64,000 bases of DNA, taken from the NCBI RefSeq assembly GCF_963921235.1, contig NC_086108.1:50098001-50162000 (forward strand). Direction: 5' to 3'. The stretch comes from Mobula hypostoma. Its lineage: Eukaryota. Under the pieces are notes generated by a model, which searched no databases, was not told where the DNA came from, and worked only from the letters and a program-made list of their open reading frames with translations. Within the stretch, counting starts at the first letter, position 1, and every line of letters begins with the position of its first letter. Below are positions 1,051 to 63,100 of the stretch, piece after piece. The position numbers were made by a program, and so were the translations under genes.

Positions 1051-1199
1051 GTTAGCTTACTTTTTTTCTGATACTCGGCAAGATCTCTCTACAACTTGAA
1101 TGTCCTGGCATTTCTTAAAAGTTGGTCTCATCTTTAAGGAACACACATCAAAGTTACTGGTGAACGCAGCAGGCCAGGCAGCATCTGTAGGAAGAGGTG

Positions 1200-1238
1200 C
1201 AGTCGACGTTTCAGGCCGAGACCCTTCGTCAGGACTAA
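1200..1238 (-). ncRNA. Minimal type I hammerhead ribozyme motif (PLE pseudo-LTR)
   Basis: Reverse strand reads UAGUC-CUGACGA-A-GGGU-CUCG-GCCU-GAAAC-GUC-GACUG. Confidence 0.75.
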
Positions 1239-3060
1239 CTGAAGGAAGAGTGAGTAAGGGATTTGAAAGTTGGAGGGGGAGGGGGAGATCCAAAATGATA
1301 GGAGAAGACAGGAGGGGGAGGGATAGAGCCAAGAGCTGGACAGGTGATAGGCAGAAGGGGATACGAGAGGATCATGGGACAGGAGGTCCGGGAAGAAAGA
1401 CGGGGGGGGGGGACCCAGAGGATGGGCAAGAGGTATATTCAGAGGGACAGAGGAAGAAAAAGGAGAGTGAGAGAAAGAATGTGTGCATAAAAATAAGTAA
1501 CAGATGGGGTACGAGGGGGGGGTGGGGCCTTAGCGGAAGTTAGAGAAGTCGATGTTCATGCCATCAGGTTGGAGGCTACCGAGATGGAATATAAGGTGTT
1601 GTTCCTCCAACCTGAGTGTGGCTTCATCTTTACAGTAGAGGAGGCCGTGGATAGACATGTCAGAATGGGAATGGGATGTGGAATTAAAATGTGTGGCCAC
1701 TGGGAGATCCTGCTTTCTCTGGCGGACAGAGCGTAGATGTTCAGCAAAGCGGTCTCCCAGTCTGCGTCGGGTCTCGCCAATATATAAAAGGCTACATCGG
1801 GAGCACCAGATGCAGTATATCACCCCAGTCGACTCACAGGTGAAGTGTTGCTGTTTTTGCAAGAGACAGGGTGAGAAGAGGAATAGTCCAGATAGCTGTG
1901 AGAGTCGGTAGGCTTATAGTAGACATGTCTACTATAATGTCATCCCCTTCTCGCAATTCCTCCGTCTCCGCCGCATCTGCTCTCAGGATGAGGCTTTTCA
2001 TTCTAGGACGAGGGAGATGTCTTCCTTTTTTAAAGAAAGGGGCTTCCCTTCCTCCACTATCAACTCTGCTCTTAAACGCATCTCCCCCATTTCATGTACA
2101 TGTGCTCTCACTCCATCCTCCCGCCACCCCACTAGGAATAGGGTTCCCCTAGTCCTCACCTACCACCCCACCAGCCTCCGGGTCCAACGTATTATTCTCC
2201 GTAACTTCCACCACCTCCAACGGGATCCCACCACTAAGCACATCTTTCCCTCCCCCCCTCTCTCTGCATTCCGGAGGGATCGCTCCCTACACAACTCCCT
2301 TGTCCATTCGTCCCCCCCATCCCTCCCCACTGATCTCCCTCCTGGCACTTATCCATGTAAGCGGAACAAGTGCTACACATGCCCTTACACTTCCTCCCTT
2401 ACCACCATTCAGGGCCCCAAACAGTCCTTCCAGCTGAGGCAACACTTCACCTGTGAGTCGACTGGGGTGATATACTGCGTCCAGTGCTCCAGATGTGGCC
2501 TTTTATATATTGGCGAGACCCGACGCAGACTGGGAGACCGCTTTGCTGAACATCTACGCTCTGTCCGCCAGAGAAAGCAGGATCTCCCAGTGGCCACACA
2601 TTTTAATTCCACATCCCATTCCCATTCTGACATGTCTATCCACGGCCTCCTCTACTGTTAAGATGAAGCCACACTCAGGTTGGAGGAACAACACCTTATA
2701 TTCCATCTGGGTAGCCTCCAACCTGATGGCATGAACATCGACTTCTCTAACTTCCACTAAGGCCCCACCTCCCCCTCATACCCCATCTGTTACTTATTTT
2801 TATGCACACATTCTTTCTCTCACTCTCCTTTTTCTCCCTCTGTCCCTCTGAATATACCTCTTGCCCATCCTCTGGGTCCCCCCCCCCCTTGTCTTTCTTC
2901 CCGGACCTCCTGTCCCATGATCCTCTCGTATCCCCTTTTGCCTATCACCTGTCCAGCTCTCGGCTCTATCCCTCCCCCTCCTGTCTTCTCCTATCATTTT
3001 GGATCTCCCCCTCCCCCTCCCCCTCCAACTTTCAAATCCCTTACTCACTCTTCTTTCAGT

Positions 3061-3098
3061 TAGTCCTGACGAAGGGTCTCGGCCTGAAACGTCAACTG
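3061..3098 (+). ncRNA. Minimal hammerhead ribozyme motif, stem I mismatch
   Basis: tagtc CTGACGA a gggt ctcg gcct GAAAC GTC aactg. G>A at the first stem I pair relative to the other copies. Confidence 0.65.
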
Positions 3099-5229
3099 CA
3101 CCTCTTCCTACAGATGCTGCCTGGCCTGCTGCGTTCACCAGCAACTTTGATGTGTGTTGCTTGAATTTCCAGCATCTGCAGAATTCCTGTTGTTCTCATC
3201 TTTAAGGTGTCTCTTGAACTTCCTCTGTTCTAATAACACCAAAAAGTCATGCACCATTTAAAAGACTAATGCACTATTTCTTCTGAATGTTTCTTGTAGT
3301 TCTGTGATGTTCACTGTAGCTTCTCACTCCGTGCCTTTCTTTCATTGCCCAACTTGGTGGGACTGCCTTTATTTACCCAGATTATCTCCAACAATCTGAA
3401 TCATTACATTCATGACCACCATTGTTTCATCTTTAGTCATTGCTCTGTGTATCTATCTACTGTTGACATGGTGTGGACATTTAAATGGACACTGGTACCT
3501 CTCTGACTCATCCTCTGTCCTGTATCTTTATTGTCTCATTGTTTGTTGAGCATAAGCCAGAATTTCTATCGATTATGTTATGTCCCGGGTTAACCAGATT
3601 ATTTCGGTTTTGGTATTCTGTTCATGCTGAACTGAAGTCTGAGGCAAGTTACTTAAACACTAGGAATATACTCGTTTACTGGTAAAGGAGTATAGTCTTT
3701 GAAATTTTTTTAAAAAACCTCAACCACGGAGTTAGAAATCTACCTATTGTCTGGGTTATCTTAACTACCGCTGCCCATGTCCTTTTATGTTAATTGGGCA
3801 TTTAAATTCTGAATCATCTATATTGACTCCTGATTCTACAATGTCTAAACTTTAAAATTCTTCTATTAATAAGCCCCTGTTGTACCAATTCTCTTATCTC
3901 TTCATGTTTTTGCATGGTTGACTTAATGCTCCCAAATAGTCTTTATCTCAAACTCAGCCTCATTTTTACACCTCTCATCTTTTCCCCTGCCTTTAATGGC
4001 TTTATATTTTCTGCATGTGCATCCGCATAGTGGATTTTTGTAATAAGACGAGGAATGCTACCCCCGCCCCGCAAAAGAATTGTCCACTTTTGACACAACA
4101 TATTCCTTTGAGCAATCAAGGGCCAATAAGCATATGGATAATTGATTAAACGTTTAATTTGTTAAAATTCCATTATACAGTTTGCAGTGTAAATAAGGTT
4201 CAGCTTCACACAGTTGTGAAGGAACCATTTCAACATAAGCTTTAGATAGTGAGAAAGCATGGAAAACTATTAAATCATCTTTCTGTGGAAGGAAATGTGC
4301 TTGCAGTGTAGCTACCTGCTTATCATCATTAACTACCAAATTCAGTGTTTACTTGGAATGCACTAGTAATCTCTAATAGTAATGAAAAGTGTTTTCTTTT
4401 GATATCTGGCCATTGAGCATGTCTCAGCCCTTTGCATAAAATAAAATTCTAGAAATGTCTGTTGTTCAGATCATGAAGTGAACTATTGTTTGATTAACAA
4501 TAAAATCAGTAACTGATTTTAGTAAATCAACATTGGCCTGAACAAGTGGGTGGGTCTTGATTTAAATATTTCACCTTATGTACATGTCATCGCTGCAACA
4601 ACCAATATTGTTCCAATACTGCAGTTTGTCTCCAACAGGCTTCCTGCTGGAAAAGAATGAACCTACTGGATGAGCAGGAAACTGTTCAACCTTCATTGCC
4701 TCCATTCCTGAAACAAGAGCACCCTAATCTGGGTACTGATTCACAGTAATCAGGCAGCATGTGCCAAGCCCATATTAAAAGGCCAAGCTCCAAGTTGGCA
4801 TTGACTCCTGGACTTAATTGTATGAGAGGATGGAGCTTATATTATACATCAAGGGAACAAAGCTCCTCTTGCAATCAATTTCCACTACCTGCTATGCCTC
4901 TGACAATCATGTTCAACAGTAAGACATGGGAAACCATTAGAATTTACCTTGCCTTTGACTGACTGAGGAAAAGAAATTTTTGGAAATCAGGACCTCAAAG
5001 CTGAACAGAAAACATTTAATATACTGAGCAGAAATGATCCCTGCCCTCCAGTAAGCTCTGAAAAGATGGGTACAATATAGCAGGCATCACAAAACACTAG
5101 GGGAGTGTAGCCAATACCATCTCTGCAGTTCTCCAAGCCCATTGATCAAATAGCTGAACCAGCGACCCCATGATTGTGGTTCTAATTAGGTGAGCTGGAT
5201 TGTTCATATGTCTGACATGAGATTTTAAA

Positions 5230-6294: not shown

Positions 6295-7404
6295 GTAAGT
6301 GAGCAGTTGATGTATTATAAACTGAACCGCCACTCAGAATGTTGATCTGTGAATTTACCCTATTGATTATGTTTTAAAATAATACAAAAGGAGCTTTGAT
6401 GTTTGTATGCAGATTTAATGGTGGATTTCAATTAGGTGTTAATCAGAGATGTCCATATGTCTCAACTTACTAAGTTCTGTGCAGTACTCTGCCTGAAACT
6501 GATTTTGCTGTGTTGAGTTTATTTATATGTGTAGTTAAGTTCACATATCAAATTCATTCTGGCTGTTAGAGTTTGTCCAGGGTTAAGTGAAGCCAAATTA
6601 TGTTACAAGCAGCTCCTCACCCCATACTTAAATTGTATATTCTTTAAATTTATGTGGCTTCCTTTGGGAATAATAAATTCATTTGCTTTCAGTATTTTAT
6701 GAATATTTTATATTTTGCTTTAAAGTAAATATATCAAGGTTGTTGAACAGATTGCGCATATAGAAACTAATGGGTGTAATCTTATAGCCATTACATAGAT
6801 AAGGTTGCAAAATTACAAAGTTGGGGATTAAATGTTCCAGGATACTTCTAAGAAATTGGCAGATTGGAAGAAGAGGTGGAATCAGCTTGACTTTCAGAGA
6901 ATGCTATAAAGGAGGAAGGATTTTAACTAAGAAAACCATCCACAATCAATTGAGGATTGGTTCATGAGCAGAAAATAGGTATAAATAGATTATTTTTAGG
7001 ATAGAAGGCTGTGGCCATTTTACTGTTGCAGGCCTCAGCTTTTTTTCAAACTATGCCAGTGATTTGGATGAGGGGATTGCTTACAAGGATTAACCCGCAA
7101 CAATAATTAGCAGTTACGCACAGAGAGGATCTGTATTTACTCCAGATATCATTATTGTCTCAACTAATAGGCATATGAATTTACAAACTAACTAAATGTG
7201 TGCACGTTGACTAGGTTTCTGTGAGTCTCCATGAGCAGTCAAAGAATATAAATGGTAATACCTGGGAAAAGGAGTCTATGCTGGCCAGGCATTCCTCGTG
7301 GTCCTGATTTATTCTGCATGTGGCTGACATAGGGTCCTCCATATCCAAAATGGCTGGTCTCCAGAGTTCTCCCAAAATCCTCCAGTTTTATTCATTTCCA
7401 TATC

Positions 7405-9202
7405 AGATCAAATTTGTTGACTGGAGGTAATGGTAAGGTGAAGACAGAAACGGGTGAATTTATTATGGAGAACAAGGAAATGGCAGACGAGTTGAACAGG
7501 TACTTTGGATCTGTCTTCACTAGGGAAGACACAAACAAACTCCCAGATGTAATAGTGGCCAAAGGACCTAGAGTAATGGATGAACTGAAGGAAATTTATA
7601 TTAGGCAGGAAATGGTGTTGGATAGACTGTTGGGTCTGAAGGCTGATAAGTTCCTCGGACCTGATGGTCTGCATCCCAAGGTACTTAAGGAGGTGGATTT
7701 AGAAATCGTGGACGCATTGGTAATCATTTTCCAATGTTCTATAGATTCAGGATCAGTTCCTGTGGATTGGAGGGTGGCCAATGTTGTCCCTCTTTTCAAG
7801 AAGGGAGGAAGAGAGAAAACAGGGAATTATAGACTAGTTAGCCTGATGTCGGTGGTGGGAAAGATGCTGGAGTCAATTATAAAAGATGAAATTACGACAC
7901 ATCTGGATAGCAGTAACAGGATCGGTCCGAGTCATCATGGATTTACGAAGGGGAAATCGTGCTTGACTAATCTTCTGGAATTTTTTGAGGATGTAACTAT
8001 GAAAATGGACAAGGGAGAGCCAGTGGTTGTAGTGTACCTGAACTTTCAGAAAGCCTTTGATAAAGTCCCACATAGGAGATTAGTGGGCAAAATTAGGGCA
8101 CATGGTATCGGGTGCAGAGTACTGACATGGATTAAAAATTGGCTGGCTGACAGAAAACAAAGAGTAGCGATTAACAGGTCCCTTTCGGAATGGCAGACGG
8201 TGACCAGTGGGGTACTGCAGGGTTTACAATATATATTAATGATTTGGATGAGGGAATTAAAAGTAACATTAGCAAATTTGCTGATGACACAAAGCTGGGT
8301 GGCAGTGTGAAATGTGAGGAGGATGTTATGAGAATGCAGGGTGAGTTGGACAGGCTGGGTGAGTGGGCAGATGCATGGCAGATGCAGTTTAATGTGGATA
8401 AGTGTGAGATTATCCACTTTGGTGGTAAGAACAGGAAGGCAGATTATTATCTAAATGGAGTCAAGTTAGGAAAAGGGGAAGTACAACGAGATCTAGGTGT
8501 TCTTGTACATGAGTTACTGAAAGCAAGCATGCAAGTGCAGCAGGCAGCGAAGAAAGCTAATGGCATGCTGGCCTTCCATAACAAAGGGAGTTGAGTATAA
8601 GAGCAAAGAGGTTCTTCTGCAGCTGTACAGGGCCCTGGTGAGACCACACCTGGGGTACTGTGTGTAGTTTTGGTCTCCAAATTTGAGGAAGGACATTCTT
8701 GCTATTGAGGGAGTGCAGCGTAGGCTCACAAGGTTAATTCCGAGATGGCGGGACTGTCATATGTCGAAAGATTGGAGCGACTGGGCTTGTATACTCTGGA
8801 ATTTAGAAGGCTGAGAGGGGATCTTATTAAAACATATAAGATTATTAAGGGATTGGACACGCTGGAGGCAGGGAGCATGTTCCCGCTGATGGGTGAGTCC
8901 AGAACCAGAGGTCACAGTTTAAAAATAAGGGGTAAGCCATTTAGAACGGAGTTGAGGAAAAACTTTTTCACCCAGAGAGTGATGGATATATGGAATGCTC
9001 TGCCCCAGAAGGCTGTGGAGGCCAAGTCTCTGGATGCTTTCAAGAAAGAGATGGATAGAGCTCTTAAAGATAGCGGAATCAAAGGTTATGGGGATAAGGC
9101 GGGAACTGGATACTGATTGTGGATGATCGGCCATGATCACAGTGAATGGTGGTGCTGGCTCGAAGGGCCGAATGGCCTACTCCTGCACCTATTGTCTATT
9201 GT
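7405..9202 (+). mobile_element. 5'-truncated CR1 LINE (RT, frameshifted)
   Basis: ORFs 7414-8310, 8190-8594 and 8745-9116 carry GPDGLHP, WRVANVVPLFKKG, KAFDKVPH and KFADDTKL. Tail cctattgtctattg. Confidence 0.93.
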
Positions 9203-10620: not shown

Positions 10621-10869
10621 AACTTAGAAAGTGTAAGCTGAAATTGTGTGAAAATTAGAGGATGACCCTGATATAAAACAGAAGAGATGATTGTCAGTAT
10701 AGAAAGTGTGTGAATTTAGTAAATAAATGTTAATAGTAAAATTAAAGGTAAAAGTAACTTTTACTTACTGAATTCGCACACTTTCTCTATTGACAATCAT
10801 CTCTTCTGTTTCCTAAGAGGGTCATCCTCTAATTTTCACACAATTTTTTTTCCTTCCTCCTTCTAAGTT
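10621..10869. repeat. Inverted repeat (about 82-bp core arms, about 42-nt spacer)
   Basis: 10641-10669 is the exact reverse complement of 10818-10846. aaacagaagagatgattgtca pairs with tgacaatcatctcttctgttt, and further pairing extends to 10722/10765. Confidence 0.9.
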
Positions 10870-14559: not shown

Positions 14560-14658
14560 TATTTTCTTGTAATGGCAACAGCAAGCTGCTTTGAAAGGGT
14601 TTAATCGTTAGCAGGAGATATTTCTGTAAAGCTGAATTTGGAACTGGTTACAATGCCA

Positions 14659-15596
14659 CCTCCAATGGGATCCCACCACTAAGCACATCTTTCCCTCCTC
14701 CCCTCTCTCTGCATTCCGCAGGGATCGCTCCCTACACAACTCCCTTGTCCATTCGTTCCCCCCATCCCTCCCCACTGATCTCCCTCCTGGCACTTATCCG
14801 TGTAAGCGGAACAAGTGCTACACATGCCCTTACACTTCCTCCCTTACCACCATTCAGGGCCCCAAACAGTCCTTCCAGGTGAGGCATCACTTCACCTGTG
14901 AGTCGACTGGGGTGATATACTGCGTCCGGCGCTCCCGATGTGGCCTTTTATATATTGGTGAGACCCGACGCAGACTGGGAGACCGCTTTGCTGAACATCT
15001 ACGCTCTGTCCGCCAGAGAAAGCAGGATCTCCCAGTGGCCACACATTTTAATTCCACATCCCATTCCCATTCTGACATGTCTGTCCACGGCCTCCTCTAC
15101 TGTGGAGATGAAGCCACACTCAGGTTGGAGGAACAACACCTTATATTCCGTCTGGGTAGCCTCCAACCTGATGGCATGAACATCGACTTCTCTAACTTCC
15201 GCTAAGGCCCCACCTCCCCCTCGTACCCCATCTGTTACTCATTTTTATGCACACATTCTTTCTCTCACTCTCCTTTTTCTCCCTCTGTCCCTCTGAATAT
15301 ACCTCTTGCCCATCCTCTGGGTCACCCCCCCCCCCTTGTCTTTCTTCCCGGACCTCCTGTCCCATGATCCTCTCGTATCCCCTTTTGCCTATCACCTGTC
15401 CAGCTCTTGGCTCTATCCCTCCCCCTCCTGTCTTCTCCTATCATTTTGGATCTCCCCCTCCCCCTCCAACTTTCAAATCCCTTACTCACTCTTCCTTCAG
15501 TTAGTCCTGACGAAGGGTCTCGGCCTGAAACGTCGACTGCGCCTCTTTCTATAGATGCTGCTTGGCCTGCTGCGTTCACCAGCAACTTTGATGTAT
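14659..15596 (+). mobile_element. PLE 3' fragment with intact GIY-YIG C-terminus and pseudo-LTR
   Basis: ORF 14879-15205 is GIY-YIG. Flanked by gttacaatgcca (14647-14658) and gttacaatacca (15597-15608), a 12-bp TSD with one mismatch. Confidence 0.9.
15502..15539 (+). ncRNA. Minimal type I hammerhead ribozyme motif (intact core)
   Basis: tagtc CTGACGA a gggt ctcg gcct GAAAC GTC gactg. Predicted cleavage 3' of GUC at 15534. Confidence 0.78.
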
Positions 15597-16011: not shown

Positions 16012-16348
16012 GTAAGGCAAGTGTGGTAGATCCAAGTATTAATGAAAAGCACTGCAAGTAGATACAAAAATATAGGTTTGTAAATAATCCAATTTTTTAA
16101 ATTAGTTAATTGTCTTTTATCTTGTGAGCAGAGAATGGTCAGTCTCTGAGGTAATGCCAGCATAAAGCTATTGTATGATAGTGTTGGAAATTATCTGCAG
16201 TAGTATGTGTTTCTTCTATTTCTTAATCTGTTGTCCTACTATATATTTTTAAAAGGCATTATCCATTGACTAGATTTGGTTACACCGATTCAAGGTTTTG
16301 AATATTAATGCTTCTTTGGGAATGTTTGAAATCTATGCATTTGAAATA

Positions 16349-17939: not shown

Positions 17940-18217
17940 TATATAAATAATGAAATAAACAACTTTTGTACTATTTGCTTTTAAGTTCAATAATTGTTTA
18001 TAAGATCTGCCTTTATATCCAAGTATTAAAAATAAATGTTTGTTTCACTATTCATGTGCACTTTTATTTAACCATACTCCTATTTACAATTGTTTTGTGG
18101 TATAATATGGGCATTGAAATTAGTTGTGGCCTCATTCTGCAAAAGGTGGCCTGAGCCTAATAGTTTTTGTCTTCTGATGTTGGGATTTGGGAGGTTATTT
18201 TTTTGGACTTGAAAAAC

Positions 18218-35705: not shown

Positions 35706-36150
35706 TAGCCTCCAACCTGATGGCATGAACATCGACTTCTCTAACTTCCGCTAAGGCCCCACCTCCCCCTCGTACCCCATCTGTTACTCATTTTTATGCA
35801 CACATTCTTTCTCTCACTCTCCTTTTTCTCCCTCTGTCCCTCTGAATATACCTCTTGCCCATCCTCTGGGTCACCCCCCCCCCCCCGTCTTTCTTCCCGG
35901 ACCTCCTGTCCCATGATCCTCTCGTATCCCCTTTTGCTTATCACCTGTCCAGCTCTTGGCTCTATCCCTCCCCATCCTGTCTTCTGCTATCATTTTGGAT
36001 CTCCCCCTCCCCCTCCAGCTTTCAAATCCCTTACTCACTCTTCCTTCAGTTAGTCCTGACGAAGGGTCTCGGCCTGAAACGTCGACTGCACCTCTTCCTA
36101 CAGATGCTGCTTGGCCTGCTGCGTTCACCAGCAACTTTGATGTATGTTGC
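35706..36150 (+). mobile_element. PLE pseudo-LTR fragment inserted in L1 ORF2
   Basis: Near-identical to 15155-15599. 10-bp TSD ggggataagg at 35696-35705 and 36151-36160. Confidence 0.92.
36051..36088 (+). ncRNA. Minimal type I hammerhead ribozyme motif (intact core)
   Basis: tagtc CTGACGA a gggt ctcg gcct GAAAC GTC gactg. Confidence 0.78.
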
Positions 36151-42352: not shown

Positions 42353-44534
42353 TCCAATATGTCTCTCCAGTTTCTCAGCAGCATATTGAGGAGGATATCA
42401 CAAAAGTGAGATGCAGTTTTTGCCCACAAAAACGTCATTCTGGAGCTTTTTATCTTTGCTTTCCACCTAAACTACGTGAAGTTGCATGTTTTGAATATTC
42501 CTTTTAAATATTAAGACATGTCATTATTGTTTGGACAGTAAATTTGGATGTAAGCTTACAATGAGTAGTTAAGAAATTATTGTCAAGTATTGACAACTAC
42601 CTACAGGTAGGCAGATGACTGTGAGTAAAATGGAAGGATATGGACCTTGTGTACGCAGAAGAGATTAATTTAGTTAGCTATATAGTTACTAATTTAATTG
42701 GTCGGCACAACATTGTGACCTGAAGGTCCTGTTCCTGTGCTGTACTGTTCTGTTTTCTGTTTTAAGACATACATTTCTCATACTCAGGTTTGAAAGCTAT
42801 CTTAAAATAAGATGCTTTACTCTTGGGAAACTTGATCATGGCAAATTAAATCTATTATTTCTTTATTGGATAAAGATATTAATGACTGTAATCAGAATTT
42901 TGCTTGTAGTCGTTATAAAATATCAGTTAAGCCACATAATATCTGCTCTAAGCTGTTGAATGAAGTGACATTCTGATTGCATAATTTGAAAAATACCTGA
43001 ATCATCCAGCATGCATGCAATGAACACATATAATGTCTTCAAAGGAACAGTATACATCCAGATGAAATTGTATTGTGCTCTTGATTATACTATATTGATT
43101 GTACTATTTGCATATAGAGTTGGAAAGAATAATGTTTAAACGAAAACCTAACAATGGAATATGCTCTTTTCATTGGGATATTCTTCCTGTTTTTATCTTT
43201 ACCTACTTAGTTGTTGTACATTACTTTCATACATTGTCCATTTGAAATATGTGGAAAGAAAATAAGTCAAAGTAACAAATTCTCTGAATGCATGAATTTG
43301 AACTCAGTTCACCTTTTTTTGATGGTGTTAAAACCCTGCACTTCTATTATGATTATGATCATTGATAACAGTTGTATGTTGTGCAAGTTCTGCACAAGAT
43401 ATGTCCAAATGAGGACATAGCAGCAATCCGGTTTGTGGTTTGCTGCAAGTAGAATCTGAATGTGCAGTAAAATTAAGAATCATAATAGTTGCTATTTACA
43501 TTAATGTTATATGTGTAGTACCATCCTGATACTGAACAAAATACTTGTCAGTCATTCCTAATGGCTGGTGACCATAAATTGAGGAAGAAGCCTCTTAGTT
43601 CTTGGCTTTGCCCACAAAAAATGAATATTTTAGGTACTGTTTCTTAGGATCTTTGTAAGCCTTCATGTCGATCATTAATTATGTCATTCTGTCCTTACTT
43701 TGGTTGTATAGGTAACTTACATTTTACAACACAACTCAGCTCTGGCCCTGGACTTTCTTTTCTTTTCCTTCATCTCCTATAGACTCATGCTGTAACTGTC
43801 ACAAACAGTTTAGTAAGTTGACCATGATGCCTTTTACCCAAGGCCTTCATTAGATTTTGGAGACACACACGATCTGTTTTTCACAAATGGCAAAGTCAGT
43901 TGATGTCTTCTGTCAATTTTGTACATTTCCAACCATCCCATTTCTTGTATTTCCTTTTTACTTATGCACGCTGTACCACTTATAAAACAACCAACTTTAA
44001 GTACAAGTATGCATTAGACTAAATGGGATATGGATATTTATAACTCCTCTGATAGACTCTGATATGATCATCTGTTTTGATTGTACTGGTTAAACAAAAT
44101 CAATGCAAAAAAGATAAGCGTAGATGAATATTAAAACAGATAGGTAAAACACTTGTGCAGAGAGCATAAGGATACTGCAAAAGCATATTGATAGAAAAAG
44201 AGAGTAGATAAATGTTGATCAAAGATGTAATGTGGAAAAATGTATAATTCTCCATTTTGGCTGCAAAAAAAAAGAGAATTTTAGCTACATGGTAAGAGAT
44301 TGGTCTGACATGCAAGAGTATCCAGTTCAGCTACTCGTGATCCACAAAAGTAATTAATTAGGCAAGCCAGGAGAATGCTTTTGGTTACTGCTAGGGGAAT
44401 TGAAAATTAGGAGTGGAAATTAGACTACTGTATACATGGCATCAGTGAGGCCACATCCGAAGTTCTGTTTACATTCTCAATATAAAAAGTTACAAATATA
44501 TTGGCAGCAATGAAGATTTAATCAAGATGTAAGT

Positions 44535-45615
44535 GCGAGAGATTCTGCAGATGCTGAAAATCCAGAGCAGCACACAAAAAATGCTGGAGGAACTCAGTAG
44601 GTCAGATCACATCTATGGAAGTGAATAAACATTCGATGTTTTGGACTGACCCCCTTCATCGGGACTGAAGAGGAAAGGGGGAAGAAGCCAGAATAAAAAG
44701 GTGAGAGAAGCGAAGCTAGAAGGTGGTAGGTGAAGCAAGGTGGGTAGGTGAAGGGGATGAAGTAAGAAGCTGAGAGGTGATACGTTGGAAAGGCAAGGAC
44801 TGGAGAAGAAAGGAATCTGATAGGAGAGGAGAGTGGACCGGAAGTTTGGGGAACTTGATATTCATGTGCTCAGGTTGGAGGCTACCTAGGTGGAATATGA
44901 GGTGTTGCTCCTCCAACCTGAGAATGGCCTCAGCTTGACAGAAGGAGGCCATGGATCATCATGTAAGAATGGGGGTTAGAATTGGAATGGCTGGCCACTG
45001 AGAAATCCTACTTTTTGCGGATGGAACGAAGGTGCTTGACAAAATGGTCCCCCAATTTACGGCGAATTTCACCAATGTAGAAGAGGCCTCATCAGGAGCA
45101 CTAGATACAGTAGCCGCCCCAAACAGATCTGCGGGTAACGTGTTGCCTCACCTGGCAGGACTTTTTGAGGGCTGAATGGAAGTGTGGAGGAAGTGACTGG
45201 GTAGGTATAGCACTTCTGCTTGCAGGGATAAGTGCCAGGAAGGAGATTAGTGGGGAAGGACAAATGGAAAAGGGAATCACGGAGGGAGTGATCTCTGCAG
45301 ATGGTGAAAGTTGGGGGGGGGGGTGTGGAGAGGTAAAGGTGTGTTTGGTGGTAGGATAATATTGAAGATAGCAGAAGTTACGGAGAATGATGCATTGGAT
45401 GCGGGGTGGTAGGTGAGGACAAGAGGAACTCTATCCCTGTTAAGGTGGTGGGAAGATGGTATGAGCAGAGATGTTCAGGAAATGGAGGAGATGCAGGTGA
45501 GGGCAGCATCAATGGTGGAGGAAACCCCATTCTTTCAACAAGGGACACATCTGAGGGCCTGGAAAGGTGAACCTCATCCTGGAAACAGATGCGGCACAGA
45601 CAAAGGAACTGAGAA
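44535..45615 (-). mobile_element. Older, diverged PLE copy
   Basis: ORF 44716-44952 reads LRLEEQHLIFHLGSLQP. Also present: a degenerate hammerhead near 44630-44668, the tail ctgcagatgctg, and an SQFL..RIC remnant near 45600. Confidence 0.8.
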
Positions 45616-48346
45616 AATAATAATAAAGATGTAAATGGAATGGGTGAGTTGTCTTATGAAGAAAGCCTAGATAAGCTTTGTAGTTTAAATGGGAGTTTAG
45701 AAGAATGAGCAGTGGTTTCATTGAAGCATACAAGGTTCCTAAGACTGTTTGACCATACGACATAGGAACAGAATTAGACCATTTGGCCCATCAAGTCTGC
45801 TCTGCCATTCAATCGTGGTTGATCCTTTCTTCCCTGGCCTCCTCCTTGTAACCTTTGATGCCGTGGCCAATCAGGTACGTATCAATCTCCACTTTAAATA
45901 CACCCAGCGACCTTTCCTCTACTGCTGCTTGTGGTAACAAGTTCCACAAACTCACCACCCTCTGGCTGAAGAAATTTCTCCATATCTCTGTTTTAAATGG
46001 TCATCCCTCTATCCTAGGCTGTGCCCTCTTGTCATAGACTTCCACACCATGGGAAACATTCTTTCCACATCTACTCTGTCCTAGGCCTTTCAACATTTGA
46101 AAGGTTTCATTGAGATCCACCCCCCCATCCGAAATTCCAGCGAGTATAGGCCCAGACCCGTCAAACATTCCTCATATGATAACCCTTTCATTCCTGGAAT
46201 CATCCTTGTGAACCTCCTGTGAACTCTCTCCAATGCCAGAACATCTTTTCTTAGATAAGGAGCCCAAAACTGTTTACAATACTCAAGATAAGGCCTCACC
46301 AGTGCCTTAGAAAGCCTCAGCATCACATCCCTGCTCTTAAATTCTAGACCTCTTGAAATGAATGCTAACATTGCACTTGCCTTCCTCACCACTGATTCAA
46401 CCTGCAAGTTAACCTTTAGGATGTTCTGCACAAGGACTCCCAAGTCCCTTTGGTTCTCAGAATTTTGGATTTTCTCTCCATTTAGAAAATAGTCTGCACA
46501 TGTATTTCTTCTACCAAAGTGCATGACTATGCATTTTCCAACGTTGTATTTCATCTGCCACTTTCTTGCCCTTTCTCCTAATTTGTCTCAGTCCTTGCTG
46601 GAGCCTTCCTGTTTCCTCAACACCATCTACCCCTCCACCAATCTTCGTATCATCTGCAAACTTGGCAACAAAGCCATCTATTCCATCGTCTAAGTCATTT
46701 ATGTACAGCATAAAAGGAAGCGATTCCAACACTGACCACTGCATAACACCACTAGTTACTGGCAGCCAGCCAGAAAAGGATCCTTTTATTCCCACTTGCT
46801 GCCTTCTGCCAGTCAGCCAATACTTAGTCATGCTAGTAACTTTACTGTAACACCATGGGCTCTTAACTTGGTAAGCAGCCTGATGTGTAGCACCTTGTCA
46901 AAGGCCTTCTGAAAGTCTAAATATACTACATTCCCTGCATCCCCTTTATCAATTCTACTTGTAATCTCCTTAAAGAATTCCAACAGGTTCATCAGGCAAG
47001 GTTTCTAAGGAGATCATGTTGACAGTGTCCTATTTTGTCCTGCGTAACCAGGTACTCCATAACTTTATCCTTAATAATTGACTCCAGCATCTTTCCAACC
47101 ACCAAGGTCAGGCTAACCAGTCTATAATTTCCTTTCTGCTGCCTCCCTCCTTTCTTAAAGAGTGGAGGGACATTTGTAATTTTTTAATCCTCTGGAACTA
47201 TGCCAGGGTCCAATGATTTTTGAAAGTTTATTACTAATGCCTCCACAATCTCTACTGCTACCTCTTTCAGAACCCTAGGGTGCAGTTCATCTGGTTCAGT
47301 TGACTTATGTACCTTTAGGTGTTTCAGCTTTTTGAGCACCATCTCCCTTGTCATAGTAACTGCACTCACTTCTCTTCCCTCATACCCTTCAACACCTGGT
47401 ACACTGCTAGTTGCTTCCACAGTGAAAACTGACGCAAAATACGCATTTAGTTCATCTGCCATCTCCTTGTCTCCTGTTATTATTTCTCCAGCCTCCCTTT
47501 CTTGCTGTCCTATATCCACTCTGATCTTTTTTTTAATATACTTCAGAAAGTGCTTTCTATCCACCTTGATATTGTTTGCTAACTTACTTTCATATTTCTT
47601 CTTTTCCCTCCTAATGATCTTTTTAGATGCTTTCTGTAGGTTTTTAAAAGCTTACTAATCCTCTGTCTTCCTGCTAATTTTTGCTTTGTTGTTTGCCCTC
47701 TCTTGTGCTATTACATTAGCTTTGACCTCCCTTGTCAGCCACAGTTGTACTATTTTGCTATTTGAGTATTTCTTTGTTTTTGGAATACATCCATCCTGCA
47801 CCTTCCTCAATTTTTCCAGAAACTCAAGCCATTGCTGCTCTACTGTCATCCCTGCCAGCATCTCCTTCCAATGTACTTTGACCAACTTCTTTCATACCAC
47901 TGTAATTTCCTTTACTTTAATGAAATACTACATCAGACTTTACTTTCTCCCTATTAAATTTCAAATTGAACTCAATCTGTTGTGATCACTGTCCCCTAAG
48001 TGTTCCTTTACCTTAAGCTCCCTGATCACCTCTGGTTCATTACATAACATCCAATCCAGTATAGCGGATCCCCTAGTACTCAACAACAAGCTGCTCTAAA
48101 AAGCCATCTCGTAAGCATTCAACAAATTCACTCTCTTGAGATCCATTACTAACCTGATTTTTCCAAATCTACCTGAATGTTAAAATCTCCCATGACTATG
48201 ATAACATTGCCCTTTGGCACACCTGTTCTATTTCCTATTGCATTTTGTAGTCCACATCCCAGTTTGGAGGCCTGTATATTACTGCCATCAGGGTCCTTTT
48301 ACTCTTGCACTTTCTTACCTCAACCCACAAGGATTCAACATCTTCT

Positions 48347-49171
48347 CAAACACGAGGAAATCTGCAGATGCTGGAAAGAGTGGAACAAGTGCTACACATG
48401 CCCTTACACTTCCTCCCTTACCACCATTCAGGGGCCCAGACTGTCCTTCCAGGTGAGGCGACACTTCACCTGTGAGTCGACTGGGGTGATATACTGTGTC
48501 CGGTGCTCCCAATGTGGCCTTCTATATATTGGCGAGACCTGATGCAGACTGGGAGATCATTTCGCTGAACACCTACGCTCTGTCCGCCAGAGAAAGCAGG
48601 ATCTCCCAGTGGCCACACATTTTAATTCCACGTCCCATTCCCATTCTAATATGTCTATCCACGGCCTCTACTGTAAAGATGAAGCCACACTCAGGTTGGA
48701 GGAACAACACCTTATATTCCATCTGGGTAGCCTCCAACCTGATGGCATGAACATTGACTTCTCAAACTTCCACTAATGCCCCACCTCCCCCTCGTACCCC
48801 ATCTGTTATTTATGTATATACACACATTCTTTTGCTCTCTCTCCTTTTTCTCCCTCTGTCCCTCTCACTATACCCTTTGCCCATCCTCTGGGTTTCCCCC
48901 CTCCCCCTTTTTTTTCTCCCTAGGCCTCCTGTCCCATGATCCTCTCATACCCCTTTTGCCAATCAACTGTCCAGCTCTTGGCTCCATCCCTCCCCCTCCT
49001 GTCTTCTCCTATCATTTTGGATCTCCCCCTCCCCTTCCCACTTTCAAATCTCTTACTAGCTCTTCTTTCAGTTAGTCCTGACGAAGGGTCTCGACCTGAA
49101 ACGTCGACTGCATGCTTCCTAGAGATGCTGCCTGGCCTGCTGCATTTACCAGCAACTTTGATGTGTGTGGC
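48347..49171 (+). mobile_element. PLE fold-back remnant: about 30-nt inverted tail plus GIY-YIG/pseudo-LTR arm
   Basis: 13-bp TSD ttcaacatcttct at 48334-48346 and 49172-49184. 48347-48377 is the reverse complement of the PLE tail. Confidence 0.9.
49073..49110 (+). ncRNA. Minimal type I hammerhead ribozyme motif (intact core)
   Basis: tagtc CTGACGA a gggt ctcg acct GAAAC GTC gactg. The stem II U-G pair is U-A here. Confidence 0.78.
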
Positions 49172-53174: not shown

Positions 53175-53310
53175 CAAACAAGAGAAAATCTGCAGAGGCT
53201 GGAAATCCAAGCAACACACACAAAATGCTGAAGGAACTTAGCAGGCTAGTAAGCATCAATGGAAAAGGGGTAAACAATCGATGTTTTGGGCTGAGACCCT
53301 TCATCAGAAC
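53175..53310 (-). mobile_element. Short PLE terminus (tail plus decayed hammerhead)
   Basis: Tail aaatctgcagaggctggaaatccaagcaacacac. The minus strand reads ctgatgaagggtctcagcccaaaacatcga. Confidence 0.75.
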
Positions 53311-55732: not shown

Positions 55733-55981
55733 ATCAAAGTTGCTGGTGAACGCAGTAGGCCAGGCAGCATCTCTAGGAAGAGGTACAGTCGACATTTAGG
55801 GCCAAGACCCTCTGTCAGGACTAACTGAAAGAAGAGCTCTTCTTTCAGTTAGCCCTGCCGAAGGGTCTCGGCCCGAAACGTCGACTATACCTCTTCCTAG
55901 AGGTGCTGCCTGGCCTGCTGTGTTCACCAGCAACTTTGATGTGTGTTGCTTGAATTTCCAGCATCTGCAGACTTCCTCGTG
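55733..55981. mobile_element. Non-coding PLE-derived fold-back element (208-bp palindrome plus tail)
   Basis: Arms 55733-55836 and 55837-55940, no loop (gaagag|ctcttc). 15-bp TSD ttagcaacatttatc at 55721-55735 and 55982-55996. Confidence 0.92.
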
Positions 55982-56004
55982 TTAGCAACATTTATCTGTT
56001 TTTG

Positions 56005-59002
56005 ACTGCAGCAAGGGGGGAGGGGAACCAGAGTGCAGGAACAGATGTAGGGGAGAAGGAAGAAAAAGAGAATAGTTTGCGCCGTTAGTGATAAACAGAG
56101 AGTAAGAGGTGGAAAATTTCTTAAGTGCATTTTTTTTTAATGCTAGGAGCATTATAAGAAAGGTGGATGAGTGTAAAGCATGGATTGATACCTGGAAGTC
56201 TGATGTGGTAGCTATTAGTGAAACATGGTTGCAGGAGGAGTGTGATTGGCGACTAAATATTCCTGGATTTCATTGCTTCAGGTGTCATAGAATCGGAGGG
56301 ACAAGAGGGGGAGGTGTTGCATTGCTTGTCAGAGAAAATATTACAGCGCTGCTCTGGCAGGATAGATTAGAGGGCTCGTCTAGAGAGGCTATTAAGGTGG
56401 AATTGAGGAATGAGAAAGGTGTAGTAACACTTATAGGGGTGTATTATAGACCACCTGATGGGGAGCGAGAATTTGAGGAACAAATTTGTAAGGAGATAGC
56501 AGATATTTGTAGTAAGCACAAGGTTGTGGTTGTGGGAGATTTTAATTTTCCATACATAGACTAGGAAGCCCATACTGTAAAAGGGCTGGATGGTTTGGAG
56601 TTTGTAAAATGTGTGCAGGATAGTTTTTTGCAGCAATACATAGAGGTACCAACTAGAGAAGAGGCAGTGTTGGATCTCCTGTTAGGGAATAAGATAGGTC
56701 AGGTGACGGAAGTATGTACTGGGGAGCACTTCGGGTCCAGTGATCACAATGCCATTAGTTTCAATGTAATTATGGAGAAAGATAGGTCTGGACCCAGGTT
56801 TGAGATTCTTGATTGGAGAAAGGCTAACTTTGAGGAGATGTGAAAGGATTTAGAAGGAGTGGATTGAGACAATTTGTTTTATGGGAAGGATGTAATAGAG
56901 AAATGGAGGTCATTTAAAGGTGAAATCTTGAGGGTACAGAATCTTTATGTTCCTGTTAAGTTGAAAGGAACGGTTAAAAGTTTGAGCGAGCCATGGTTTT
57001 CAAAGGATATTGGAAACTTGGTTTGGAAAAAGAGAGATATCTACAATAAATATAGGCAGCATGGAATAACTGAGGTGCTTGAGGAATATAAAGAATGTAA
57101 AAAGAATCTTAAGAAAGAAATTAGAAAAGCTAAAAGAAGATGCAGGGTTTCTTTGGCAAGTAAGGTGAAAATAAATCCAAAGGGTTTCTACAGTTATATT
57201 AATAGAAAAAGGATAGTGAGGGATAAAATTGGTCCCTTAGAGAATCAGAGTGGACAGCGATGTGCGGAACCAAAAGAGATGGGGGAGATTTTGAACAATT
57301 TCTTTTCTTTGGTATTCACTAAGGAGAAGGACATTGAATTGTGTAAGGTAAAGGAAACAGGTAGGGAAGTTATGGAAACTATGATGATTAAAGAAGAGGA
57401 AGTACTGGCACTTTTAAGGAATATAAAAGTGGATAAGTCTCCGGGTCCTGACAGGATATTCCCTAGGATCTTGAGGGAAGTTAGTGTGGAAATAGCAGGG
57501 GCTCTGACAGAAATATTTCAAATATCATTAGAAACGGGAATGGTGCAGGAGGATTGGCGTATTGCTCATGTTGTTCCATTGTTTAAAAAGGATTCTACGA
57601 GTAAACCTAGCAATTATCGGCCTGTGAGTTTGACGTCAGTGGTGGGTAAATTGATGGAAAGTATTCTTAGAGATGGTATGTATAATTACCTGGATAGACA
57701 GGGTCTGATTAGGAACAGTCAACATGGATTTGTGCATGGAAGGTCATGTTTGACAAATCTTATTGAATTTTTTGATGAGGTTACTAGGAAAGTTGACGAG
57801 GCTAAAGCGGTGGATGTTGTCGATATGGACTTCAGTAAGGCCTTTGACAAGGTTCCACACGGAAGGTTAGTTAGGAAGGTTCAGTCGTTAGGTATTAATA
57901 TTGAAGTAGTAAAATGGATTCAGCAGTGGCTGAATGGGAGAAGCCAGAGAGTGGTGGTGGATAACTGTTTATTAGATTGGAGGCCGGTGACTAGTGATGT
58001 CCCTCAGGGATCTGTACTGGGTCCAGTGTTGTTTGTCATATACATTAATGATCTGGATGACGGGGGGATAAATTGGATAAGTAAGTATGCAGATGATACT
58101 AAGATAGGTGGAGTTGTGGATAATGAAGTAGGTTTTCAAAGCTTGCAGAGAGATTTAGGCAAGTTAGAAGAGTGGTCTGAAAGATGGCAGATGGAGTTTA
58201 ATGCTGATAAATGTGAGGTGCTACATTTTGGTAGGACTAATCAAAATAGGACATACATGGTAAATGGTAGGGCATTGAAGAATGCAGTTTAAACAGAGGG
58301 ATCTAGGAATAATGGTGCATAGTTCCCTGAAGGTGGAATCTCATGTGGATAGGGTGGTGAAGAAAGCTTTTGGTATGCTGGCCTTTATAAATCAGAGCAT
58401 TGAGTATAGGAGTTGGGATGTAATGTTAAAATTGTACAAGGCATTGGTAAGGCCAAATTTGGAGTATTATGTACAGTTCTGGTTACCGAATTATAGGAAA
58501 GATGTCGACAAAATAGAGAGAGTGCAGAGAAGATTTACTAGAATGTTACCTGGGTTTCATCATCTAAGTTGCAGAGAAAGATTGAACAAGTTGTGTCTTT
58601 ATTCTTTGGAGCGTAGAAGGTTGAGGGGGGACTTGATAGAGGTATTTAAAATTAGAGGGGGGATAGATAGAGTTGACGTGGATAGGCTTTTTCCATTGAG
58701 AGTAGGGGAGATTCAAACAAGAGGACATGAGTTGAGAGTTAGGGGGCAACGTTTTAGCGGTAACATGAGGAGGATCTTCTTTACTCAGAGAGTGGTAGTT
58801 GTGTGGAACGAGCTTCCAGCAGAAGTGGTAGAGGCAGCTTCGATATTGTCATTTAAAGTAAAATTGGATAGCTATATGGACAGGAAAGGAATAGAGGGTT
58901 ATGGGCTGAGTGCAGGTCGGTGGCACTCCGTGAGAGTAAGCATTCAGTACGGACTAGAAGGGCTGAGATAGCCTGGTTCTGTGCTGTAATTGTTATATGG
59001 TT
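56005..59002 (+). mobile_element. CR1 LINE, complete ORF2 region (APE endonuclease + RT) with stops
   Basis: ORFs 56109-56564 (NARSI, ISETW, VGDFN), 56595-56843 (SDH), 56874-58292 (YADDTK) and 58282-58971. Tail gttatatggtta. Confidence 0.95.
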
Positions 59003-59113
59003 AATTATGAAAAATGTAATTATATCTTTTGCCACATATAGAGCAAAAAGATGTACATCTTTTATAAATATGCATTAAAATCAATCTGTTTTTCTTTTGG
59101 AAAATGAACACAG

Positions 59114-60264: not shown

Positions 60265-62085
60265 TAGTCGCAAGGAGAAGTTTGTGAACACTTTGCCATT
60301 ATCTGGTTTTCTGCATTAATTACTCATAAAATGTGGTCTGATCTTCATCTAAGTCACAATAATAGACAAACACAGTCTGCTTAAACTAATAATACACAAA
60401 CAATTGTACATAATTGTTGTCAATACTGAGTACAATATTTGAACAAACACAATCTAAGTTCAAAAAAGTATGTGAAGCTCTGGGGTAATGCCTTCTACAA
60501 AAGCTATTTGGAGTCAGCTGTTCCAGTCAATGAGATGAGATTGGAGGTGTGGGTTGTAGAGGTGCCCTGCCCTATTTTTAAAAAAAGACACACAAAGTCA
60601 GGTTACTGACAGAACCTGTATTTCTCAAGAAAGATCTGTTTATGTGCACTATGCATCAATCAAAACAACTTTCAGAGGACCTTGGAAGAAATGTAGAGAT
60701 ACAGAAAGATGGGAAAGATGACAAGCATTTCTGAAGACCTGAGTATTCGTCAGTCCGCAGTGAGAGAAATTGTCTACAAATGAAGGAAATTCAGTACTGT
60801 TGCTACTCTGCCTATGGGTGGGTGTCCTGCAAAGATCACACCAAGCACAATGGGTAATGCTAAAGAAGGTGGAAGAAGAACCCAAGCATAACAGTAAAAG
60901 ACCTGCAGAAATCTCTAGAACTTGCTAAAGTCTCCGTTCATAAGAAAAGCATTGAACAAGAACGGTGTTCATGGAAGGACACCACGGAGGAAACCACTGC
61001 TCTCCCAAAAAAAAACACTTTGCTGCACATCTCAAGTTTGCAAAAGACCACCTGGATGTTCCACAATACCTCTGGGACAATGTTCTGAGAACACATGAGA
61101 CAAAAGTTTAACTTTTTGATAGAAATGCACACCACTATGTTTGGAGGAAAAAGGGCACTGTACACCAACAGCAAAGCCTCATCCCAAGCATGGTGGAAGG
61201 AACATCATTGTTTCAGGCTACTTTGCTGCCTCAGGCCCTAGACAGCTTGCAGTCAATGAGGAACAATGTATTCAAAATTGTAACAAGTCATTTTACACGA
61301 GACTGTCAGGGTAGCAGTCCGAAACCTAAAGCTTAATAGAAGTTGGATGATGCAACAAGACAATGATCCAAAACACAAGAATAAATCAACAACAGAATGG
61401 AATGGTTTAAAAAGAAAATTCATACTTTGGAGTGGCCAAGTCAGAGTCCGGACCTTAATCCAATTGAAATGCTGTGGCATGACCTGAAGAGGGTTGTTCA
61501 TGCAAGGTATACCGGAAATATTGATGAACTGAAACAGTTTTTTATGTAGGAATGATCTAAAATTCCTCCTCACCATTGATAAGCAGCTGCAGGAAACTTT
61601 TGGTGGAGGTGATTGCTGCTATAGGAGGTTCTACCAGTTACTAAATACAAGAGTTCACAGTTTTTCCAGCCTGGATTGTGAATGATTAAACAATGTGCTC
61701 AATAAAGTCAAGTTTATTGTCAATTAACTACATACGTGTATATAATGTATATGGAAATCAGGTGACGGTTCTTCGAACTAGGGTGTAAAGCACATAACAG
61801 ACTGTAACTTATGAAGGTAAGGATAAAATCTACAGATGAATGACACAGAAGTGACAAACTAAAGTGCATTAATATTAAATATTGTAAGCACAGAACAGAT
61901 TAACCAGTGACACTTCGAGTACAATGTAAAGACATGAAAAGTACTATTGTTTCTGTGTTATTAGTTTAGGCAGATTATGTTCATCTATTATTGTGACTTA
62001 GATGAAGATTGGATCACATTTTATGAGTAATTAATGCAGAAAACCAGGTAATTGCAAAGGGTTTACAAACAACTTCTTGCAGCTG
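60265..62085 (+). mobile_element. Full-span decayed Tc1 transposon with an about 220-bp insertion in the right TIR
   Basis: Long TIRs (ggttttctgcattaattactcataaaatgtg / cacattttatgagtaattaatgcagaaaacc). Remnants include QQDNDPKH and [12 protein letters not shown]. Insertion at about 61705-61925. Confidence 0.88.
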
Positions 62086-62497
62086 CATAAGGACAAATGC
62101 AAAAGGCAGTGTGGATGTAAGGAAGTTTGTGTGGTCATTAAGCAGTGAGCAGTAATTTTATTTTTATCATATGGATTTGACAAACAATTTGATATGATGT
62201 AATTCCCCACTGATATTCATTCATCATAGCACCAGGCAGGAAATCATGCTACAACTTTCTTTTGGATGTCCGCAGACTGTGAAATTGTTACACTTTCAAG
62301 CCCTTAAGTGTTTCCTTTTCATAAAAGTAATTGGCAAGAATTCTAAATTGTGTCTATAACTATAATAACTAACATTAATTTTATTTTTTATCTGAAGTCC
62401 TACAGTAAATCATAAATTTTAGAGGAAGTGGTCAGAAATATGACTTGATATTTTAATTTTAGTTTGCCGTCTTGCAAACTAATAGCTAACAATCTAT

Positions 62498-62641
62498 GCA
62501 ACACACATCAAAATTGCTGGTGAACGCAGCAGGCCAGGCAGCATCTCTAGGAAGAGGTACAGTTGACGCCTGTTGCGTTCACCAGCAACATTGATGTATG
62601 TTGCTTGAATTTCCAGCATCTGCAGAATTCCTGTTGTTTGC
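62498..62641. mobile_element. 144-bp PLE-derived fold-back element with central deletion
   Basis: Inverted terminus gcaacacacatcaaa...ggtgaacgcagcagg pairs with cctgttgcgttcaccagcaac..ttgatgtatgttgc, followed by the tail. 13-bp TSD gctaacaatctat at 62485-62497 and 62642-62654. Confidence 0.88.
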
Positions 62642-63100
62642 GCTAACAATCTATTATTTAATTGTACTGTATATGCACAATTAAGAACATTCCTCTACAC
62701 AATGGTTATTTTGGAGCAAATTTTATCATTTAAAAGTGCGAAACCATTCTTTGAATGCTTTCAGACGTGTGTTTCCATTCAATCCTTTACTCATTCTGAA
62801 TGTTAAAAGCATGTTTCTTGTTTTGCCATTAATTTTAAGTAACAGTCAGTACTATTGCAGAAATTCATTATGATGCTGCCTTGATGAATCGTACTTGACC
62901 CTCTACCTTTTCAACTTTGAGCTATAACGTTAGTAGAAAAGCATAGACATAGCTGAGTGTTGTCTTGAAGGATAATTGCTGTTTCAGGGGTAGGATTTAG
63001 CTAGAAGTGTCCATGTGTACACTATTTATTCGTTGAAGACTGTTGAATTACCATAACATGGGGATTTTTTTTTTGTTTCTTTCCTTCCCCCACTCTTCAG

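Follow-up and report, generated by a model that had tools for sequence, protein, structure and literature searches.

How does a Penelope-like retroelement (PLE) come to rest as two opposed copies of its own 3' end inside a single target site duplication (TSD)? This question is raised by a 64,000 nt stretch of the Mobula hypostoma genome (the whole of which we call the window). The PLE literature covered here describes the route to inverted units as undefined to date, and the very abundant family represented in the window is natural test material for it.

Four two-part insertions occur in the window where the original prediction had placed them: U1 (1140-3193), U2 (48347-49171), U3 (55736-55981) and U4 (62498-62641). 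One TSD pair encloses each unit in its entirety, measuring 14 bp at U1 (1126/3194), 13 bp at U2 (48334/49172, around both parts), 15 bp at U3 (55721/55982) and 13 bp at U4 (62485/62642), thereby verifying the predicted range of 13-15 bp; repeats of at least 13 appear in 2 of 2987 random window pairs. Each unit has a single TSD pair, which excludes two independent insertions and makes each two-part unit one insertion event. An assembly fold-back artefact is likewise excluded, because the arms differ at 18 of 712 sites in U1 (2.5%) and 11 of 101 in U3 (10.9%), and the content of the U1 arms is unequal. U2, U3 and U4 are old, diverging by 4-16% from other copies, and U1 is a young insertion. No full-length or direct tandem (pLTR-ORF-pLTR) copy is present in the 64-kb window.

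These units are defunct copies, truncated at the 5' end, of a very abundant EN+ Penelope-like retroelement. The frame at 1530-1913 matches Pfam GIY-YIG with 26.3 bits (cut-off 22.6), two other frames fall under the cut-off (19.2 and 18 bits), and homologs of 890-904 aa with 47-50% identity have RVT_1 followed by GIY-YIG, the window keeping only the part after the RT core. A hammerhead is recognizable by motif and pairing (core boxes, stems I and II, palindromic helix III) and its self-cleavage is predicted only; Rfam returned no hammerhead match at E up to 1 across the window or up to 10 at the end of a related single arm (U5, below). The motif resembles the minimal hammerheads described for metazoan PLEs by Cervera and De la Pena (2014, PMC4209133) in its type I form, 5-bp stem I, unpaired base before stem II and core-only palindromic helix III, with no difference found by motif except that the core is absent from U4. 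The predicted identity as hammerhead-bearing GIY-YIG elements is upheld apart from that unit. In Schistosoma, hammerhead pairs on opposite strands, 100-700 bp apart, had already been noted (PMC4209133). Searches found no matching solved structure, no exact match to a 25-nt family motif in metagenome, viral and prokaryote collections (0 matches), and no relative by protein profile in viral contigs.

U1 is the most complex unit and is laid out as follows:

1126..1139, + strand: left copy of the 14-bp TSD (right copy at 3194-3207)
1140..1851, - strand: tail-less arm, segment Z, with GIY-YIG part, 3' region and hammerhead motif; mirror of 2439-3158
1852..1913, - strand: segment X, RT thumb region, 62 nt, left arm only; directly precedes Y in homologs
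1914..1937, no strand: perfect palindrome of 24 nt with segment P in each arm, centred at 1925|1926 on an AT dinucleotide that the two share
1938..2438, + strand: segment Y, right arm only
2439..3160, + strand: right arm, segment Z, to the inner start site (3160)
3061..3098, + strand: putative minimal type I hammerhead motif, core at 3066, predicted cut after 3093, with one stem I change in this copy
3161..3193, + strand: tail, 33 nt

Although the arms were predicted to meet without a spacer at 1925|1926, which is indeed a perfect centre, U1 is mirrored about it over 12+12 nt only and its long inverted arms are separated by 587 nt. X runs directly into Y in homologous proteins (P0038 residues 506-529 then 530; P0004 residues 155-178 then 179) and in contigs of all 4 sequencing runs compared (8 of 15 listed joints; 3995 in total). 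This comparison took all contigs of 4 of 23 listed runs against window positions 1820-4400, is saturated (272,564 contigs in X1), and has a loose end at 1926 in the alignment over the U1 centre. Because each arm holds a piece absent from the other, and these pieces are contiguous in homologs, a hairpin copy of one arm cannot yield U1 without extra deletions. The left arm differs by 2.5% both from U6 (below) and from the U1 right arm, the shared sites being in conflict, and such point differences do not settle whether one or two RNA templates were used.

The remaining units, and two single arms of the same family, are simpler:

48347..48377, - strand: U2, inverted tail only, 31 nt, ending 5 nt before the inner start site
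48378..49171, + strand: U2, tail-less arm, 794 nt, the 13-bp TSD lying around both parts
55736..55981, no strand: U3, loop-less palindrome with a 101-nt tail-less arm and a 145-nt tailed arm, centre 55836|55837 on AGCT
62498..62641, no strand: U4, asymmetric unit with a 71-nt tail-less arm and a 74-nt tailed arm (37-nt tail) overlapping by 1 nt
14655..15596, + strand: U5, tail-less single arm, 8-bp TSD (14647/15597)
35706..36150, + strand: U6, tail-less single arm, 10-bp TSD (35696/36151)

The tail is one-sided in all four two-part units, as predicted, at a full length of 33, 32 or 37 nt rather than up to 45 (the U2 piece at 48347 being a 31-nt portion of it). The single fixed end proposed for tail-less arms (...gttgc) is exact in 3 of 6 and is missed by 2, 5 and 12 nt in the others. 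U1, U3 and U4 contain an inverted 5'-truncated copy within one TSD. U2 has no mirrored body: the tail alone is inverted beside the long tail-less arm, 5 nt are absent between the parts, and the target overhang matches those at 4 of 5 positions. The U4 arms begin at unequal distances from the inner site, 71 and 38 nt, so that on the 5' side the tail-less arm reaches 33 nt beyond the tailed arm. A whole-arm loop-less palindrome is found in one unit of four, U3, where the tail-less arm mirrors part of the tailed arm about a common centre; in U1, U2 and U4 it does not. One palindromic architecture shared by all four units does not stand, and the lost centres once ascribed to U2 and U4 are an assumption, there being no sequence trace that either centre ever existed. 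A turning point at the ribozyme cut was also considered and rejected, the left arm of U4 ending 3-4 nt before the cut and the U3 centre lying 45 nt before it.

U5 and U6 confirm the two further copies that keep a tail-less arm alone. Two tailed single arms of a related older family had been overlooked:

44533..45625, - strand: tailed single arm, TSD 9 bp exact or 14 bp with one mismatch
~53177..53310, - strand: short tailed single arm beginning just before the hammerhead core, TSD uncertain

The one-sided layout recurs in distant relatives from metagenome contigs: all 6 carry the tail on a single arm, which is the shorter one in 5 of them, five have TSDs (11-16 bp), and the tail-less arm fails to mirror the tailed arm about a common centre in 5 of 6. 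One relative (L054) has arms that are 99.7% alike and measure 338 versus at least 1532 nt. A junction palindrome above half-length 5 is seen in 0 of 12, in a set biased against symmetric units because its loci were selected by ORF match on the long arm and then by eye (15 of 37 inverted-repeat loci, 3 dropped) and because short-read assemblies break at long perfect palindromes.

We consider it likely that the two-part units formed through reverse transcription primed from the two 3' overhangs that a staggered cut leaves, as in L1 twin priming. One overhang would prime at the inner start site, giving the tail-less arm, and the other 32-37 nt further on, giving the tailed arm; the two cDNAs would end independently before being joined head to head, and a single arm would arise if just one priming succeeded. 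The inverted tail plus long tail-less arm of U2, and the tail-less single arms with their intact TSDs, speak for this reading. The inverted segments of U2 and U1 abut on the template (a 5-nt gap in U2, no gap between X and Y in U1), and those of U3 and U4 overlap instead. Because the two cDNAs abut without overlap, one RNA was probably common to both in U2 and at the U1 centre, and since Z is on both arms of U1, a single shared RNA would there require strand displacement. The symmetric centres (U3, and 12 bp in U1) might mark cDNAs that both ended at the same RNA 5' end and paired via a self-complementary word of 2-4 nt, or else a short snap-back. Against dual priming, the window has only four two-part units, asymmetry can also come from post-insertion deletion in palindromes, and two of the four have the same arm 5' end, where independent truncation predicts otherwise and an extra assumption is required.

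Priming at the inner site would likely be aided where the target overhang pairs in part with the RNA immediately beyond that site. Window targets match this RNA at 18 of 30 first-five positions (7.9 expected, P 1.5e-4; 0.047 and 0.014 under stricter nulls), and those of the distant relatives at 15 of 25 (6.6 expected, P 4e-4; 0.002 and 0.051 under stricter nulls), an enrichment of microhomology at the internal site in two small sets with P from 1.5e-4 to 0.05 by null. The primer end is mismatched in 2 of the 6 tail-less ends in the window (U4, U6). A further point against pairing comes from the lizard element Poseidon_Ac (PAc) of Anolis carolinensis, which is reported to prime at a site without homology to the cut DNA (Frangieh et al. 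2024, PMC11167929), unlike the partial match past the inner site seen in our units. That element is otherwise a close parallel: two RT start sites bound its tail downstream of the hammerhead, both target strands are nicked and extended, and it is predicted to be dimeric; a model of inverted units is not among the passages covered (PMC11167929). We tentatively propose, with slightly less than even confidence, that twin priming is built into such elements, a dimer on one RNA offering two fixed starts to the two overhangs, with pairing tuning the inner start and a trailing RT displacing the leading cDNA. If true, this would account for one-sided tails, inverted pLTRs, arms reduced to a tail and very small hairpin scars by a rule spanning cartilaginous fish to distant relatives, with U1 and U2 as readable records.

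In L1 twin priming, according to PMC11702581 (citing Ostertag and Kazazian 2001), the other target end similarly primes second with microhomology at an internal site, leaving abutting inverted segments with gaps or duplications of 1-10 bp, retained TSDs of 12-18 bp and an occasional template switch. Its second priming site is variable and upstream and its enzyme class is different, whereas the inner site here is fixed near the 3' end, which is why arms can overlap for hundreds of bases. No application of twin priming to PLEs, and no short PLE palindrome called MITE-like, was found in the literature searched, mostly non-subscription.

The routine passage through a hairpin cDNA that had been predicted, in which the first strand, tail included, turns back on itself and is copied until synthesis stops shortly ahead of the tail, with asymmetric units losing their centres later, now appears unlikely. 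By this route the tail-less arm should mirror part of the tailed one, and, barring additional deletions, it does not do so in 3 of 4 window units or in 5 of 6 distant relatives. Palindromes do tend to suffer deletion, U3 is symmetric and loop-less with the tail-less arm the shorter, and centres such as the 24-nt perfect one of U1 are not chance: the only two in 64 kb with a half-length of at least 12 are 1925|1926 and 55836|55837, and 30 mononucleotide shuffles contain 0. A short local snap-back, over 12 bp in U1, and the symmetric U3 are compatible with some self-priming. As a general route, however, it asks U2 to lose an entire arm body to within 5 nt of the tail boundary, U5 and U6 to lose the whole tailed arm yet retain their TSDs, and U1 to undergo two deletions with one common breakpoint. 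The shorter arm bears the tail in most distant relatives, the near-identical arms of L054 are already asymmetric (which bears on asymmetry only, not on tail side), and priming by fold-back is sterically disfavoured at a centre with no loop. That longer symmetric or tandem insertions, made by any route, took their present shapes mainly through subsequent deletion, inversion or gene conversion seems quite improbable. The age of U2, U3 and U4 would allow it, and the U1 pattern might in principle follow from cleavage through a hairpin stem after which both ends were trimmed, but all TSDs are intact, U1 is young, and the breakpoints coincide with start-site boundaries of the element itself.

The layout, the junction palindromes and the idea of self-priming are already published (Arkhipova et al. 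2013, PMC3846280) for EN+ PLEs of Adineta vaga (Pen2a_Av, Pen2_Av, Pen3a; PMC3846280; Craig et al. 2021, PMC8557442). In those elements an inverted 5'-truncated copy lies beside a direct copy within one TSD, with a 30-40 nt tail on one end and junction palindromes of 18 and 38 bp; the TSDs differ, at 8-10 bp against our 13-15 bp, as does the window in having no surviving direct tandem pLTR and units that oppose whole-arm self-priming. Self-priming on an antisense transcript, building the head-to-head structure before integration, was proposed there from palindromes at inverted junctions, which U1 and U3 also have (PMC3846280). We think it very unlikely for the units here: it leaves the tail-only arm of U2 and the inner-site target similarity unexplained, and later in vitro work shows target-primed synthesis starting on sense RNA at both tail boundaries (PMC11167929). 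The side of the longer arm, the abutment of arms and the target match past the inner site are three tallies that discriminate between hairpin self-priming and dual priming.

The expected resemblance to MITEs holds in shape, U3 and U4 being short, non-coding and TSD-flanked and folding as long hairpins. That they belong to a propagating MITE-like non-autonomous family is nevertheless highly improbable: size, centre and TSD length are particular to each unit, no unit is found twice in the window, and propagation of the short palindromes was not seen. Their arms are PLE 3' ends of retroelement origin rather than transposase-type TIRs, and their TSDs are long and variable (13-15 bp), not short and fixed. 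Short TSD-flanked hairpins in such genomes can therefore be retroelement scars, and call for caution before annotation as MITEs or miRNA loci.

Self-comparison and a search for target site duplications (TSDs) confirmed six insertions of one Penelope-like element (PLE) family in the window (U1-U6), accompanied by two copies of a related older family:

1140-3193, U1, two oppositely oriented parts, 14-bp TSD
48347-49171, U2, two oppositely oriented parts, 13-bp TSD
55736-55981, U3, two oppositely oriented parts, 15-bp TSD
62498-62641, U4, two oppositely oriented parts, 13-bp TSD
14655-15596, U5, tail-less single arm, 8-bp TSD
35706-36150, U6, tail-less single arm, 10-bp TSD
44533-45625, related older family, tailed single arm
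about 53177-53310, related older family, second tailed single arm

A single TSD surrounds each two-part unit and the tail is confined to one side (33, 32 and 37 nt in window units), while single arms occur in both kinds, tailed and tail-less. Among 2987 random pairs of window sites, chance repeats of at least 13 appeared in 0.07%, at least 10 in 0.2% and at least 8 in 3.4%, which makes the TSD of U5 the weakest. The four two-part units have TSDs of 13-15 bp and the two tail-less single arms TSDs of 8-10 bp, a difference that fits, in small numbers, the dual priming proposed below. The 5' junction of U6 (35696-35712, 36151-36168) matches a 5-nt word lying a few bases on in the target, which suggests an originally longer overhang that was trimmed by microhomology joining.

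Frames of U1 match the Pfam GIY-YIG domain, one of three exceeding the cut-off. A 249-aa frame matched 40 longer proteins among 806 candidates; its closest named homologs are from stingray and sharks (58-75% identity), and relatives of 890-904 aa carry RVT_1 followed by GIY-YIG. The 3' region contains a minimal type I hammerhead motif (5-bp stem I, unpaired A before stem II, palindromic four-base helix III) in the form given for PLE hammerheads in PMC4209133, with cleavage only predicted; the hammerhead core is absent from U4. The few bases before the core, at the edge of stem I, are where the short related-family copy at about 53177-53310 starts. The family is highly abundant, with 272,564 contigs from a single run aligning to the stretch 1820-4400, a figure that is not a copy number.

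The four two-part units do not share the common palindromic architecture of the original prediction; only U3 is a whole-arm loop-less palindrome. Perfect palindrome centres with half-length of at least 12 occur in the window only at 1925|1926 and 55836|55837 (0 in 30 shuffles). Divergence between the two arms, at 18 of 712 sites for U1 and 11 of 101 for U3, excludes an assembly fold-back. The U3 centre sits on AGCT, a word that U2 has at the corresponding place, which would allow a 4-nt self-complementary overlap. Counted from the inner start site (3160, which gives the tail-less arm), the arms of U4 start at 71 and 38 nt, and they overlap by 1 nt. U2 consists of a 31-nt inverted tail alone, adjoining a 794-nt tail-less arm; 5 nt are missing between them, and the target overhang matches these at 4 of 5. 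A similar GT-rich word ending TTGC precedes the inner start site and the outer one at the far end of the tail (3150-3160, 62631-62641), and may be a candidate signal read by the protein at each.

In U1 the long inverted arms are separated by 587 nt. Outward from the centre, the left arm comprises segments P (12 nt), X (62 nt) and Z, and the right arm P, Y (501 nt), Z and the tail. In homologous proteins X is followed immediately by Y (P0038, 506-529 then 530; P0004, 155-178 then 179), and contigs from all four runs link the two across strands (8 of 15 among the joints listed); each arm therefore lacks exactly the other's piece, with a single shared breakpoint. Loose ends of 100 contigs at 1926 (agreement 0.78) indicate that the normal element extends upstream there, an AT dinucleotide being common to both arms. 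Contigs of sequencing runs X1 and X5 begin within the tail and extend to the right flank, and hence carry the right junction of U1. Contigs of X14 and X15 have 162 and 178 letters beyond the TSD with the tail unmatched, the X15 match ending at 3189, the point where resemblance of the left flank to the tail end ceases; judged from match extents, not letters, they fit an empty U1 site.

Searching metagenome contigs with a profile built from 18 proteins yielded 368 related stretches, and the best 80 of the 368 (34-50% identity) were used; 37 of these 80 have an inverted repeat of at least 40 nt. Fifteen loci were inspected by eye and three (L021, L046, L059) dropped, their repeats not being element-end arms. 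Five of the 12 kept (L049, L055, L060, L065, L074) have both ends and an 11-16 bp TSD; in L062 the tail is visible and the contig ends short of the TSD. All six of these relatives carry the common tail (~50-75 nt) on one arm only, and in five of the six that arm is the shorter; choosing loci by ORF does not force which side bears it. None of the 12 loci has a junction perfect palindrome with half-length above 5, in a set biased because loci were picked through ORF matches to their long arms and because short-read assemblies break at long palindromes. Two contigs (L051:420, L070:480) have a head-to-head junction in common, and may be a single insertion sampled twice or a re-mobilised inverted unit. 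The dropped L059, from a distant PLE, holds an inversion within its coding region (2164-2517); the breakpoints overlap, and the arrangement looks like a classic 5' inversion of the twin-priming type.

The two-part insertions are real and of a known kind, and the architecture and hypothesis originally put forward are largely published. PMC3846280 describes inverted pLTRs within one TSD, with a 31-bp tail on one pLTR and junction palindromes of 18 and 38 bp, and reads them as self-priming; PMC8557442 terms the same layout typical, and PMC4209133 reports hammerhead pairs on opposite strands 100-700 bp apart. The portions consulted of PMC8969392, PMC2997562 and bioRxiv 10.64898/2026.07.22.740005 hold nothing further on mechanism, the last comparing the origin of retrozymes from PLE ends with that of MITEs. 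With integration through a whole-arm hairpin cDNA, the tail-less arm would have to repeat part of the tailed arm in mirror image, which fails in 3 of 4 window units and 5 of 6 relatives; neither the routine use of this route nor a MITE reading of the short palindromes is supported as a general rule.

We propose instead that both target overhangs would prime, each at one start site, and that the two cDNAs would then be joined head to head. Purified Poseidon_Ac, a PLE from Anolis carolinensis, nicks and extends both strands, with two start sites bounding the tail and a predicted dimer (PMC11167929). Such dual priming would mirror L1 twin priming, in which the inverted segments lie end to end, second priming relies on microhomology and TSDs of 12-18 bp are retained (PMC11702581); its application to PLEs was not found in the literature searched, key older reviews lying outside that coverage. 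Dual priming accounts less well for the shared 5' ends in U3 and U1, which call for either a short snap-back or an RNA end in common, and point differences in U1 conflict on one versus two RNA templates for the arms.

When the first five positions are scored at each of the six tail-less window ends, target and element continuation agree at 18 of 30, against 7.9 under the null (P 1.5e-4); a stricter null that allows for AT-rich targets and takes the best of four offsets gives P 0.047 over 8 nt and 0.014 over 13 nt. In the five relatives they agree at 15 of 25, against 6.6 (P 4e-4; P 0.002 and 0.051 under the stricter null). Because TSDs were defined by maximal extension, which inflates first-position matches, this similarity to RNA past the inner site is suggestive only. 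Three ends lie exactly at 3160 and the three shifted ends are well paired; U4 and U6 have a mismatch at the primer end. Together with U1 and U2, the target similarity makes the open question of how PLE inverted units form testable.

The window also contains a PLE-unrelated, AT-rich 206-nt hairpin (10641-10846; 92-nt arms 89% complementary, 22-nt loop), with no TSD of at least 7 and only weak, below-threshold miRNA-like matches in Rfam. Elements with long terminal inverted repeats lie at 16341-17947, about 29847-31417 and 60270-62080; frames at 16566-17621 resemble a Tc1-type transposase. Many decayed LINE-type reverse transcriptase fragments are present (7333-9116, 13763-14528, 18213-20151, 45942-47651, 56106-59002).
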